DNA of 64,000 nucleotides from a virus: IMG/VR virus record IMGVR_UViG_3300032288_003288; one strand, 5' to 3'. The notes beneath the pieces are model-generated. The model was not told where the DNA came from. It saw only the letters and a list, made by a program, of their open reading frames with translations, and searched no databases. The position numbers and the translations under genes were made by a program. Of the stretch, positions 4,788 through 36,528 are shown piece by piece (the stretch's first letter is position 1; the number at the start of each line of letters is the position of its first letter).

Positions 4788-6097
4788 GTGACTTCTTCCC
4801 ATGTCATGGCTCCGACCGCGTCGTTGCCATTGGCTGCACCAGTAGCAGCAAGAGTAATGGTAACACCAATGTTGTTAGCAGCAAAAGGATCTCTTTCAAA
4901 TTGATACGCAAAGAGATCGGATCTAGATAAGTTAACTGCTGCGCCGCCAGAACCTGCAGCCACATTTACATAACCGATCTGTGCATCTCTACCACCGGTG
5001 ATAGCTGTAGCTGTAGTGTCATATTCTATTGCAGAATCATTAGACGTATTAGCAAAGTTAGCTCCAGTTAGAGTTCCACCAATAATGATCTTATACCTGT
5101 AGCTGGTATTGTTTGTAACACCAAAGAACTCGACATCTTTTAAAACAGCAACAGCATCTTTAAAAGAATCTCTTAATCTCAATGAAACGATAGGAGTAAA
5201 TGTTCCAGCCGTGGGAAGATCTTTTGGTGAGGTGATGGGTATACTAACGCTTCTAGCTCTACCGTTTAGTTCATATCCGCCTTCTGATATGACTGTAGAG
5301 CATATCTGCTTAAGCGTAGAGTTGCTGGCAGTGTTGGCGGTATTTTTAATCTCATATCTACAAGGCAACGTGGCAGTGGTCATATATGTCGTGGTGTTTA
5401 CGTTGTCGTTATGAAATATATGAGCAGGTAGCATTATGCCATCTACAACAAATCCACATCTAACGTCACCAACACCGAGCCATTCGACGTCTATCCAGAA
5501 GATATTAGACTTGGTGATGTTTAGTCCGCCTGAATGTTCAGCTGATGTGCTCTGACCAGAAAAACCTGTTCCATCGAAGCTATCGACGTTCCAGTTTGAT
5601 TGAGCTATTCTATTATCTGTAGGAGTTCCTGTGACGTTGCTCCGAAGGACCAGATAGTTTCCGCTACCATCATTTTCTAAAAAGATCCCGTTCTCTGTAT
5701 TGAAGTATCCTACTCGCTGAGTTAATCCAGCTTTAGGAGTATTCATACAGAAAGTATTTAAGATGAGTAGAGATTTGCCAGGCTGATAAGAGAATACACG
5801 CTTGGTTTCTCTATAGACGTGAGAGTTATTGGCAGTATCTACGTTCATATTTATGACCGATTCGTTGGTCATGTGCTCGGTATTAGAAGTGCCAGCAGTA
5901 TTTGTCGACCACTTGTCGTTGTCTTGATAACGATGAGAAGAATCGAAAAGAGTGTACCCTGTAGAGGTGCGAAGTCTACCAAACGCATCTGTTACAGTTC
6001 CTGACGGAGTAAGTCTGTTGTCTAACATGTTTACTTCGTATAGAGTCTTGTTATGAGACCTATGCAGTATCTTTTGATCTGATCTCCACTGCGCCAT
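4784..6097 (-). CDS. Beta-rich putative virion structural protein
   Basis: 437 aa, T/N/G-rich, DAFGRLRTS motif. Confidence 0.6.
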   Translation of the reverse strand: MAQWRSDQKILHRSHNKTLYEVNMLDNRLTPSGTVTDAFGRLRTSTGYTLFDSSHRYQDNDKWSTNTAGTSNTEHMTNESVINMNVDTANNSHVYRETKRVFSYQPGKSLLILNTFCMNTPKAGLTQRVGYFNTENGIFLENDGSGNYLVLRSNVTGTPTDNRIAQSNWNVDSFDGTGFSGQSTSAEHSGGLNITKSNIFWIDVEWLGVGDVRCGFVVDGIMLPAHIFHNDNVNTTTYMTTATLPCRYEIKNTANTASNSTLKQICSTVISEGGYELNGRARSVSIPITSPKDLPTAGTFTPIVSLRLRDSFKDAVAVLKDVEFFGVTNNTSYRYKIIIGGTLTGANFANTSNDSAIEYDTTATAITGGRDAQIGYVNVAAGSGGAAVNLSRSDLFAYQFERDPFAANNIGVTITLAATGAANGNDAVGAMTWEEVT

Positions 6098-27280: not shown

Positions 27281-27406
27281 TCAATCATAGGCCTCTGACA
27301 GTCGGTGAATCACAGACTGCCAAAACTCTTTAAACTTGGGATCTTGCGCATTCATCATGGCTCGACGAGCGTTGACGATACGGCGCAGAGTGATAGCGGG
27401 AATCAT
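27281..27406 (-). CDS. 41-aa hypothetical protein (not in ORF track)
   Basis: MIPAITLRRIVNARRAMMNAQDPKFKEFW...; coupled to the prx stop. Confidence 0.55.
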   Translation of the reverse strand: MIPAITLRRIVNARRAMMNAQDPKFKEFWQSVIHRLSEAYD

Positions 27407-27981
27407 TAGCTGTTTTCCTTCAACCAATTCAGGATATTTTCTGGAGAGGTTTCACCATATGGATCAGTCTCACAGTTCCAGGTCTTTCCAGGTTCAACGA
27501 ACCACTTCTCGATCTTGCCGTTGTTGACGACGCAAGCGTAACGCCAAGACCGATATCCGAAGCCAAGATTGAACTTTCCTGTTTCCATACGCATGGCACT
27601 CGTAAACTCACTGTTGCCATCAGGAATAACTTTGACCTTCTTGATCTTCTGATCCTTAGCCCACTTGTTCATGACAAAGGCATCGTTGACGGAGATGCAA
27701 TAGATGTCCTTGATGCCGAGAGCCTTGAACTCAGAAAACTTTTCTTCAAAGCCAGGAAGCTGGTATGTAGAACAGGTGGGTGTGAAGGCGCCAGGAAGTG
27801 AGAAGAGGACTACGCGCTTACCAGCAAAAAGCTCAAACGTGGTCACGTCTTGCCAGCGATATGGATTAGATCCACCAATCGACTCATCCCTGATGCGGGT
27901 TTTAAACACTACAGAAGGAACTACTTCAGGCAGATCAGTATACTCTTCAATTCCCTCTGAAGAAACTAATTTATTATTCAT
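27406..27981 (-). CDS. Peroxiredoxin (Prx5/redoxin family)
   Basis: LPGAFTPTCS, SVNDAFVM, PDGN, RSWRYA. Confidence 0.95.
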   Translation of the reverse strand: MNNKLVSSEGIEEYTDLPEVVPSVVFKTRIRDESIGGSNPYRWQDVTTFELFAGKRVVLFSLPGAFTPTCSTYQLPGFEEKFSEFKALGIKDIYCISVNDAFVMNKWAKDQKIKKVKVIPDGNSEFTSAMRMETGKFNLGFGYRSWRYACVVNNGKIEKWFVEPGKTWNCETDPYGETSPENILNWLKENS

Positions 27982-27988
27982 GATAACC

Positions 27989-28330
27989 TCACTTTTTTTG
28001 TTTAAGCCAGTTATTATATAGTAATTTATGTTCCTCTTTGAGAGGTTTAGATGCATCCACACGAATCATGTTATATCTTCCTTGAGTCTTCATTCTATTG
28101 TGGACTATAAAGTTACAATTACTCGGTTTGAGTTCTTCAGGAAGATCTTCTGTCATCCATGCGCATAGGTATCTTCTACACACTTCAGGGCGTTGATCGT
28201 AGATCGCACAACCATGCACCTCTAGTTTGTTTAGAAAGTGACATGGCTTTCCTCGATGCATTGGAATTCCATGGATATCGGCGCTCAAAGCTCCTGAACA
28301 ACAGGCTGTGCACTCACCACACTCTCTCAT
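27989..28330 (-). CDS. CxxCxxCC (YkgJ-like) Zn/Fe cluster protein
   Basis: CGECTACC...PCHFL...CAIYDQRPEVC. Confidence 0.8.
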   Translation of the reverse strand: MRECGECTACCSGALSADIHGIPMHRGKPCHFLNKLEVHGCAIYDQRPEVCRRYLCAWMTEDLPEELKPSNCNFIVHNRMKTQGRYNMIRVDASKPLKEEHKLLYNNWLKQKK

Positions 28331-28345
28331 ATGAATCCTTTAAAG

Positions 28346-28495
28346 GCGAAGCGGAAGGATTTGGTTATACCTTCAAGACCCAGTCAATTACCTATCGTAA
28401 TCTCGGTCAACGATCCGTTTGCCGGTTGAGCGGGAGACCAATCCCCGGATCTACTTTAGGTCCACTGACAAGGACCTTATTCAGTCACGCTTCTT
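28346..28495 (-). ncRNA. Structured RNA, possibly manA-motif-like
   Basis: Terminal GAAGCG/CGCTTC stem, GTGACTGAATA 5' segment, GGTATAACCAAATCC 3' segment, internal hairpins; family name from recollection only. Confidence 0.5.
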
Positions 28496-28518
28496 ACACC
28501 ACCCGTCGGCAGTGATCT

Positions 28519-28608
28519 TGGATGCCCTGTGGGATCCTCCCCCACGTACCCCTGAATGCAGGGGATCTTAGTCTAACTGCACGACGACCGTGTCCCAGAT
28601 CAAGGGCA
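28519..28608 (-). ncRNA. tRNA-like RNA with a Gln-type acceptor end and encoded CCA
   Basis: TGCCCT/AGGGCA-T-CCA; T-arm GTGGG-GGAGGAT-CCCAC; arm CCCCTG/CAGGGG. Confidence 0.55.
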
Positions 28609-28612
28609 AATT

Positions 28613-28813
28613 TGGCCCGCCCTATGTCCGCCGGGCTCCAGCAGACATTCATCTCGCTCTGACCGACGGGCAATCAGAGTCATATCCTATCATTACTGAG
28701 ACCACGAGGCGATAGGATACCGGCGCGGAATATGCGGGTTAAGCAGTTCAAGTTCAAAGACTCTCATAGTGTGCCTTGTCAAGGCAGTTGCAACTACCTT
28801 TAACTTCCCGCAT
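28613..28813 (-). ncRNA. One or two further structured RNAs downstream of tRNA-Asn
   Basis: Stems ATGCGGG/CCCGCAT, TATCCTATC/GATAGGATA, CTCTGA/TCAGAG and ATGTCTGCTGG/CCGGCGGACAT; ends GCGGG-CCA. Confidence 0.5.
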
Positions 28814-28819
28814 CTAAAA

Positions 28820-28894
28820 TGGCTCCGGCGGTAGGATTCGAACCTACGACCACTCGATTAACAGTCGAGGGCTCTACCGCTGAGCTACACCGGA
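28820..28894 (-). tRNA. tRNA-Asn(GTT)
   Basis: Cloverleaf, CTCGA-CT-GTT-AA-TCGAG, CCA. Confidence 0.95.
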
Positions 28895-28945
28895 ATAACT
28901 TATGTATTCTATATATACTGTGTTTTAGGATATGTACATGTATTT

Positions 28946-29029
28946 TGGTAGGGACGGCGGGACTCGAACCCGCAAGGATTTACCGAGGCATTTTAAGTGC
29001 CTTGCGTTTACCGATTTCGCCACGTCCCC
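28946..29029 (-). tRNA. tRNA-Leu(TAA)
   Basis: AGGCA-CT-TAA-AA-TGCCT, long variable arm, CCA. Confidence 0.95.
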
Positions 29030-29035
29030 AAAAGG

Positions 29036-29221
29036 TTACTTGACGGGCGTAGTCGTCTCCACAAAGTCACAGACCAGCTGGAAAAACTCGTCTTCGTCTT
29101 CTGACTCCATTCGCATGAGCTTGTCACGAACGTTTTCGGTTACACCATGAACATAGAAGTAGTGAGCAATAGCACGCTCCACTGTGGGCATGCCAAAGTA
29201 TTCAATCGTATTGCTCTTCAT
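29036..29221 (-). CDS. Small early hypothetical protein
   Basis: TAATG-coupled ORF. Confidence 0.6.
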   Translation of the reverse strand: MKSNTIEYFGMPTVERAIAHYFYVHGVTENVRDKLMRMESEDEDEFFQLVCDFVETTTPVK

Positions 29222-36500: not shown

Positions 36501-36528
36501 ACATCACCTACTGATAGTACTATATATC

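Follow-up and report, generated by a model that had tools for sequence, protein, structure and literature searches.

Structured RNA modules behind a tRNA-Asn gene

The 64,000-nucleotide (nt) sequence analysed here (IMG/VR virus record IMGVR_UViG_3300032288_003288; hereafter the window, whose positions are used for all coordinates) belongs to a divergent T4-like virus; its DNA polymerase shares about 52% identity with the cyanomyovirus enzymes and no more than 68% with that of any IMG/VR contig. On the minus strand, which carries every gene in this part of the window, a small RNA cluster begins with tRNA-Leu(UAA) (28946-29029; ARAGORN; Rfam tRNA model, 61.9 bits) and continues with tRNA-Asn(GUU) (28820-28894; ARAGORN and Rfam; CCA encoded). 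Four structured RNA units follow: U1 (28732-28813) after a 6-nt spacer, U2 (28613-28730) after a 1-nt spacer, U3 (28519-28609) after a 4-nt spacer and a manA RNA (28344-28514; Rfam RF01745) after an 8-nt spacer. The spacers from tRNA-Asn to the fourth unit are 1-8 nt throughout, all on the same strand. With moderate confidence, we read this locus as the tail of a phage ‘RNA island’, in which tRNA-Leu and tRNA-Asn are followed by four independent, self-folding RNA modules that shuffle among the tRNA, transfer-messenger RNA (tmRNA), GOLLD and manA clusters of uncultured T4-like phages.

The 475 nt between tRNA-Asn and the downstream protein gene hold no ATG-started sense open reading frame (ORF) of at least 30 amino acids (aa). 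The only sense ORF of this gene-free stretch is a 59-aa TTG frame, in agreement with a first-pass annotation of the DNA that had seen no credible sense ORF here. The G+C content of the array region is 0.56-0.57 versus about 0.46 in its flanks. Folded alone, U1, U2 and U3 each give a closed multi-branch shape, with folding-energy z-scores of -2.4, -2.2 and -0.9, respectively, a weak thermodynamic signal; the whole region has a z-score of -2.0, equal on both strands. Since these scores are weak on their own, the decisive evidence is comparative: every unit has homologues with compensatory changes. Covariation among homologues had been named beforehand as one of the tests of the first-pass proposal that the array consists of separate structured RNAs, and with covariation present in all units that proposal is supported. 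The minus-strand positions proposed for the units also check out, except that the fourth begins at 28514 and not at 28495, because the Rfam manA model takes in a 5’ hairpin (28497-28514) earlier read as spacer.

The route to relatives of the array was the peroxiredoxin gene downstream of it, used as an anchor in IMG/VR (L125-L127 first, within loci L125-L178 fetched by this anchor; L-numbers are labels of the fetched IMG/VR loci used for comparison). The intervening ORF, of CxxCxxCC type, used as an anchor in IMG/VR and metagenomes yielded only relatives of 31-44% identity, none with the array, and a word-indexed protein collection returned only the window’s own copy of it. The DNA polymerase as an anchor gave relatives of at most 68% identity; in ten of the closest, an Rfam search detected no manA, and the tRNAs it found all lay downstream of the polymerase gene.

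Catalogue searches of the region at 28200-29100 gave no Rfam 15 match for U1, U2 or U3 at E<=10, including the tRNA model RF00005, so that the covariance-model check proposed in the first-pass annotation recovered manA and left the other three units without a match. ARAGORN called no tRNA in U1, U2 or U3 at its default or at a 90% threshold. A Y-RNA-like match was rejected as it lies on the two tRNAs. The whole region had no blastn match among GenBank phages, and the same was true of U1 and U3 searched at lax E-values; U2 was covered there only within the whole region, at E<=1e-5, with no match.

The U1 and U2 families

U1 is a three-way junction composed of a closing helix P1 (7 bp in the window), a variable hairpin P2, a 16-nt joiner (CAAGGCACACUAUGAG), a hairpin P3 and an 11-nt joiner (GAACUGCUGAA). 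A pattern derived from its conserved core hit 30 IMG/VR loci, and sensitive blastn against all fetched loci also identified it in L129, L196, L197 and L233. The family features are all present in the window (closing helix, GAAG, variable hairpin, 16-nt joiner, GGGU/ACCC hairpin and 11-nt joiner). Between phages, the closing helix and the first hairpin change completely in sequence with pairing kept, and P3 of the window copy has a compensatory A-U pair where others have G-C. The joiners are invariant across the family except for one G-to-U change in the 11-nt joiner of the window (GAACUGCUUAA). A covariance model built from nine other phages with the window left out (R3) matches the window copy over its full length (58.1 bits, E 1e-12). 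Across 20 sequences, 93.9% of cells are paired and 13 of 17 pairs show double changes, a result reached by none of 500 shuffles; the alignment was model-guided, since MAFFT with RNAalifold failed on the 5’ half of U1. Two matches of the U1 pattern in metagenome-assembled genomes were dismissed as chance, R3 giving them no score.

The 27 invariant joiner nucleotides of U1 look like a specific binding pocket. We give only a small chance to the reading that this core acts as a self-cleaving or ligand-binding centre of a new kind and itself cleaves the array. A hammerhead-like reading of its CUAUGAG...CGAAC sequence was rejected: the essential G5 and one A are absent, and no ribozyme model matches.

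U2 folds as a four-way junction whose three arms are long (10, 9 and 11 bp); the CGAGAUGA linker and the 3’ AUAGGGCGG(G/A)CC are conserved. Its model (R1) was seeded with the window copy, from which the structure was also taken, and matches L233 at 85.5 bits, L196 and L197 at 64-66 bits and L182 at 37.4 bits (E 2e-7); in blastn comparison the identity is 73-77%. In a set of only five sequences, 94.4% of cells are paired and 17 of 40 pairs show double changes (0 of 500 shuffles), with arms B and C covarying. A single-sequence U2 model found no match in the locus sets anchored on the polymerase or the CxxCxxCC ORF. U2 is the least secure of the three families.

The U3 family

The U3 consensus is a cloverleaf in which four helices covary. 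The closing helix P1 counts 7 bp, or 6 in the window copy; in P2, AUCUGG is paired with CU-AGAU around a bulged A, carrying an inner hairpin that covaries (CACG/CGUG, GUGG/CUAC, CCAA/UUGG). P3 is a 6-bp hairpin, free in sequence and loop size and with a 20-nt insertion in one phage, and is followed by UAC; P4 (5-6 bp, loop GGNGGAU) abuts the 3’ strand of P1 and contains an invariant G-U pair. The conserved core reads GAUCUGGGA..AGACUAAGAUC..UACG..GGNGGAUC. Two degenerate patterns based on the comparison of the window with L127 gave 23 loci in IMG/VR and had no match in the 185,579 genomes of prokaryotes scanned; an exact 23-mer of the window copy had no IMG/VR match. The resulting model (R2) aligns 21 copies, 18 of them distinct. 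It gives the window copy 98.8 bits, but the window sits in the R2 seed and the independent members came from the pattern scans. Covariation (RNAalifold and pair counts) is extensive, with 97-98% of cells paired and double changes in 21-22 of 29-30 pairs (0 of 500 shuffles), and slid controls scored 0.07-0.14 versus 0.63 observed.

The first-pass annotation had called this unit tRNA-like. The cloverleaf shape, with junctions and helix lengths like those of a tRNA, bears this out, but the unit is undetectable as a tRNA: in the family alignment it has no anticodon loop and no canonical T-loop, and its P3 loops measure 3-8 nt. The CCA ends of the window copies had hinted at 3’ ends of the tRNA type. 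These are lineage-specific and not conserved in the families: the UCCA tail of the window U3 is the only one among 18 distinct sequences, and U2 ends in CCA in the window and L182 and in CCG in L196, L197 and L233. The tRNA-Gln-like ends of the window U3 are equally unique to this copy, and an acceptor mimic of tRNA-Gln was rejected as a reading of U3, its closing helix covarying freely and CCA not being kept.

These features bear on whether the units are decayed or diverged tRNA genes (pseudo-tRNAs) within a tRNA cluster. The cloverleaf, the likeness of the window U3 ends to the phage’s tRNA-Gln and the terminal CCA of the window U2 and U3 would fit such an origin, as would the tRNA-Val(GAC) that ARAGORN calls on U1 at an 80% threshold. 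At this threshold, however, false calls by ARAGORN number about 43 in the window, and shuffles yield 24-40. The Rfam tRNA model sees none of the units, the CCA and tRNA-Gln-like ends are not conserved and the arms of U2 measure 9-11 bp. Moreover, the families keep invariant non-tRNA cores over many phages while their stems covary, which points to selection for the folds and not to decay. We regard the pseudo-tRNA explanation as largely refuted already and scarcely credible.

A short manA variant as the fourth unit

The first-pass annotation had likened the last unit to the phage-associated manA motif, and the identification proved right. RF01745 matches 28344-28514 from model position 1 to 192 of 192 with 55.3 bits (gathering score 55.2) and E 2e-11, a borderline score over the whole model. 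The loss of part of the central domain accounts for this: about 25 model positions are missing there, with positions about 88-115 mostly deleted and posterior probabilities low. The window manA is a short variant without this part of the central domain; its closing helix is present, as are the hallmark GUGACUGAAUAA element and, on the 3’ side, the GGUAUA...AAUCC hairpin. Orthologous copies, which lie beside the same peroxiredoxin gene or in related arrays, reach 55-61 bits in L127, L192, L194 and L195 (59-61 bits in L127, L194 and L195), and the closing helix covaries among them: GAAGCG/CGCUUC in the window (3’ strand at 28348-28353), GAAGUG/CACUUC in L127, L194 and L195 and GGAAUG/CAUUCC in L192. 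A strict manA sequence pattern retrieved one unrelated locus only.

A ‘mini-manA’ of about 60 nt was observed in L129 (2705-2775) and also in L206, L210, L220, L224, L225 and L229. It keeps the closing helix GAAGCG/CGCUUC and encloses only the central GGAGUGGU..CAACCAGCAA domain. It is placed immediately behind U1, ahead of a small ORF (MWRIWAKALGEK...) and the peroxiredoxin gene, and appears to be a naturally occurring deletion form of manA.

Arrangement of the modules in other phages

A module map (INDEPENDENCE and context) puts all copies on the strand of the neighbouring tRNAs. tRNA-Asn(GUU) heads the module array in L127, L194, L210, L224 and L229, as it does in the window, while the order of the modules varies: U3-U1-U2 in L196, L197 and L233, with U1 and U2 directly after U3, versus U1-U2-U3 in the window. 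U1 occurs 3-9 nt behind tRNA-Asn in other phages and stands alone between two tRNA-Leu genes in L211 and L214, separated from the first by 8 nt and from the second by 3-6 nt (in L230 it is 1 nt behind the first). In eight loci (L207, L211, L212, L214, L215, L218, L228 and L230) it lies between tRNA genes with no ORF downstream. U2 is found alone in L182, U3 lies 1 nt behind tRNA-Thr in L190 and beside permuted tmRNA genes in seven contigs, and in L194 manA is followed after 12 nt by tRNA-Gly and not by an ORF. Family members are found 1-9 nt behind one tRNA and 3-6 nt ahead of the next. The shuffled order, the solitary copies and the tRNA and tmRNA contexts argue that U1-U3 are independent RNA genes and not one ornate RNA, decayed tRNAs or obligate leaders.

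A divergent U3-like cloverleaf (32.5 bits) fills the excised segment of the two-piece tmRNA gene of L137, exactly between the CCA of the acceptor piece and the 5’ end of the coding piece. Such phage-encoded, permuted tmRNA genes were seen at L137:2200-2575 and also in L193, L196, L198, L200, L204, L205 and L183; in L204 and L197, the intervening segment is another helix-closed structure.

One large ornate RNA of the GOLLD kind, spanning all 470 nt, might be suggested by the dense helices adjoining tRNAs and by the frequency of GOLLD in related islands. GOLLD RNAs (179-209 bits) occur at L182:2214-2659, L184:844-1304 and L194:3611-4082, in the same tRNA islands as U2, U3 and manA, and the matches in L184 and L194 each contain a tRNA gene. 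The search that detects these finds no GOLLD (RF02032) in the window at the gathering score, and neither GOLLD nor any other large-RNA model matches 28200-29100 even at E<=10. Each unit, furthermore, closes on itself, and in other phages the units are found single or permuted. A single RNA is therefore highly improbable.

The shuffled contexts could also reflect selfish mobile DNA, either MITE-like (miniature inverted-repeat transposable element) or spread by homing endonucleases, that targets the spacers of tRNA arrays, with the closing helices being terminal inverted repeats without RNA function. ORFs with homing-endonuclease-like C-termini stand beside some arrays, and SegB of phage T4 has been reported to promote inheritance of the T4 tRNA region (PMC2330249), which may be counted for this explanation. 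Nevertheless, the closing helices vary in sequence yet stay complementary, and G-U pairs, which work only on the transcribed strand, are kept on the array strand only (e.g., the invariant G-U in P4 of U3); this argues for selection on RNA and not for DNA repeats. The internal helices covary too, and neither target-site duplications nor multiple copies within one genome were found. We consider mobile DNA a very improbable explanation.

Several more recurrent small modules were noted in these islands (L194:5446-5627 and 5720-5763; also L183, L184, L189, L192, L195, L207, L218 and L228), without an Rfam match even at E<=5. One, about 104 nt long, occurs in L192 and L194; another, about 78 nt long, lies just before U3 and ends in CUGCCG(A/G)CC; and a 44-nt hairpin after U3 or U1 has a GCCCG loop that can pair with a downstream CGGGC, likely forming an H-type pseudoknot. 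Immediately behind tRNA-Asn, L127 (1853-1951) and L192 (3431-3535) carry a further module, about 100 nt long and closed by a helix; L129:2052-2068 holds only its closing hairpin, so the interior is deleted there. The phage arrays also include tRNA genes with a CUA anticodon (L182:829-903, L183:119-196, L194:4636-4710), labelled ‘Pyl’ by ARAGORN, which are possible amber suppressors.

Downstream genes and a possible cis role

The ORF downstream of the array (27989-28330, minus strand) encodes a CxxCxxCC-type putative metal-binding protein of 113 aa and is preceded by a Shine-Dalgarno (SD) sequence, AAGGA, at 28336-28340. Its match to Pfam PF03692 is weak (19.5 bits, below the cut-off of 23), that to phrog_9155 has E 2e-25, and homologues in cyanophages share 28-46% identity. 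The public gene call is 76 aa long (P0001); the ATG at 28330 with its good SD gives the 113-aa reading, which takes in the N-terminal CxxCxxCC motif, and the deposited call probably starts too late. The next gene (27406-27981, minus strand) encodes a peroxiredoxin of 191 aa (Pfam Redoxin, 1.6e-25; homologues of up to 91% identity in the protein collection) and is the conserved neighbour that anchors synteny with L125-L129. In L125-L127, the order is tRNA-Asn, a structured unit, an outer-membrane-protein ORF, a U3 homologue, manA, a small ORF and the peroxiredoxin gene.

This layout raises the question of a composite cis leader, in which U1-U2-U3-manA would stay on the CxxCxxCC-peroxiredoxin mRNA and control its stability or translation, riboswitch-like or by protecting the 5’ end. 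The manA RNA ends 14 nt before the ATG, with its closing helix 7 nt before the SD, and manA was earlier described as an element of the 5’ untranslated region (5’-UTR) and a riboswitch candidate (Weinberg et al. 2010, PMC2864571). Relatives have U3 with manA, or U1 with mini-manA, before a small ORF and the peroxiredoxin gene, but the loci sharing this synteny are close relatives and do not provide independent support. Against a leader stand the eight loci with U1 between tRNA genes and no downstream ORF, the U3 copies beside tmRNA genes and the divergent one inside such a gene, and the tRNA that follows manA in L194; in addition, no conserved helix pairs the SD. A leader made of all four units is in our estimate unlikely, while a cis role of manA on the CxxCxxCC-peroxiredoxin operon in the clade of the window is possible.

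Transcription and processing of the array

Sequence comparison pointed to a ATATATAGA box between the two tRNAs (28908-28916, minus strand) as a candidate promoter element of the -10 type. L192, L194 and L195 have a related GATATATAGT box at equal distance upstream of tRNA-Asn, with TATAAATA at this place in L127, and a ATATATAG box is found 20-30 nt upstream of tRNA-Asn in the window and three related arrays. In the window, the ATATATAG(A/T) box has four matches, all on the minus (coding) strand, versus 1.5 expected, and it recurs beside tRNA genes (e.g., 36519-36527 and 28908-28916); it is a possible promoter element of this phage group. The TGTACA promoter put forward in the first-pass annotation was not substantiated: a sigma-70 consensus scan found no promoter site for the array, and the distance from a TGTACA-like hexamer to the ATATATAG box differs between arrays.

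Co-transcription with tRNA-Asn, which is plausible given the shared strand, the tRNA-like spacers of 1-8 nt, the lack of any terminator-like site in a scan of the array and the close wedging of members between tRNAs, is likely by analogy, together with tRNA-type processing of the modules. In phage T4, the small RNAs C and D are cut out of the tRNA-cluster transcript by host nucleases. The T4 genome (NC_000866) carries rnaD and rnaC, annotated as small stable RNAs, directly behind tRNA-Arg, and by analogy with this layout co-transcription, cleavage in the spacers and survival of units with closing helices would be expected in the window. The array would be transcribed together with tRNA-Asn and its short U-rich spacers cut by host enzymes of tRNA operons, namely RNase P at tRNA 5’ ends and RNase E, or RNase Z with exonucleases, elsewhere. 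Each module would survive through its own closing helix, which holds the two ends together, as in T4 RNAs C and D. The released RNAs would then act in trans, manA by self-assembly; for the tRNA-shaped U3, which has neither an anticodon loop nor a conserved CCA, the partner would probably be a protein that binds or processes tRNAs.

Several points weigh against independent trans-acting modules. We infer co-transcription, cleavage and stability alike by analogy; the T-like loop of U3, GGNGGAU, is non-canonical and goes unseen by the Rfam tRNA model, which makes recognition by RNase P a guess; the manA match is borderline, with part of the central domain missing; and the U2 family comprises five sequences, aligned to a structure that was taken from the window copy. 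For the window and its nearest relatives (L125-L129, L206, L210 and others), moreover, the array always ends in manA or mini-manA just ahead of an ORF and the peroxiredoxin gene, which could mean a role in cis; as these phages are related, this synteny may simply be inherited.

Another arrangement, to which we give only a small chance, is that the modules stay covalently joined to manA, forming an oligomer or cage that bears 10-60 copies of U3, U1 and U2 on its surface or inside. If so, the product would be a phage RNA particle presenting tRNA mimics, acting as decoys for host defence nucleases that target tRNAs or as a sink for tRNA-binding enzymes.

Comparison with known RNA systems

The manA part of the array was already known. 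U1, U2 and U3 are three conserved, covarying families absent from the searched catalogues, new families of a known kind, the small structured RNAs of phage tRNA clusters; no description of them was found in the literature by full-text searches, which were not aimed at these motifs. With lengths of 80-120 nt, they are short, clean targets for structure determination and processing assays, and a tRNA-shaped RNA without decoding features may give a view of the ways in which phages use or escape the tRNA enzymes of their hosts.

In shape, U3, a tRNA-like cloverleaf with a 7-bp closing helix stacked on an arm of 5-6 bp with a 7-nt loop, is comparable to tRNA-like processing elements such as mascRNA, from the 3’ end of MALAT1, and the intervening segment of two-piece tmRNA precursors. 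It differs from mascRNA-type elements in having no canonical T- or D-loop sequence and no conserved CCA, and the Rfam mascRNA model gives no meaningful match.

For other manA RNAs, assembly in vitro into decamers and a 60-mer cage made of RNA only has been reported (Ren et al. 2026, preprint 10.64898/2026.07.01.735769). The manA unit of the window resembles described members in belonging to a marine T4-like phage and lying a short way upstream of an ORF. Here and in related phages, by contrast, manA closes an RNA array that follows tRNAs, and the tRNA that comes after it in L194 indicates that manA can be a stand-alone RNA gene and not solely a 5’-UTR switch. U1, U2 and U3 fall outside the manA model, and the oligomers were reported for other members of the family.

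GOLLD and ROOL (RF02032, RF03087) form nanocages and often occur near tRNA islands (Kretsch et al. 2025, PMC12286853). Like the modules described here they are phage-encoded, and GOLLD shares contigs with U2 and U3 (L182, L184, L194). They are, however, single RNAs of 400-800 nt, whereas the units of the window are independent, measure 80-170 nt and do not match those models. Phage tRNA islands are emerging as reservoirs of elaborate RNAs, and the window adds three more small families.

T4 RNAs C and D (species 1 and 2 RNA) differ from U1-U3 in several respects: they resemble them in neither sequence nor structure, R2 has no match in the T4 region, a canonical T-arm sequence is present in rnaC and absent from U1, U2 and U3, and modular shuffling is not known for the T4 RNAs. 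Nonetheless, these RNAs of 139 and 119 nt lie head to tail immediately behind the last tRNA of a cluster, on the same strand and with spacers of 1-6 nt, and they are the best analogue for the probable way in which U1-U3 are made.
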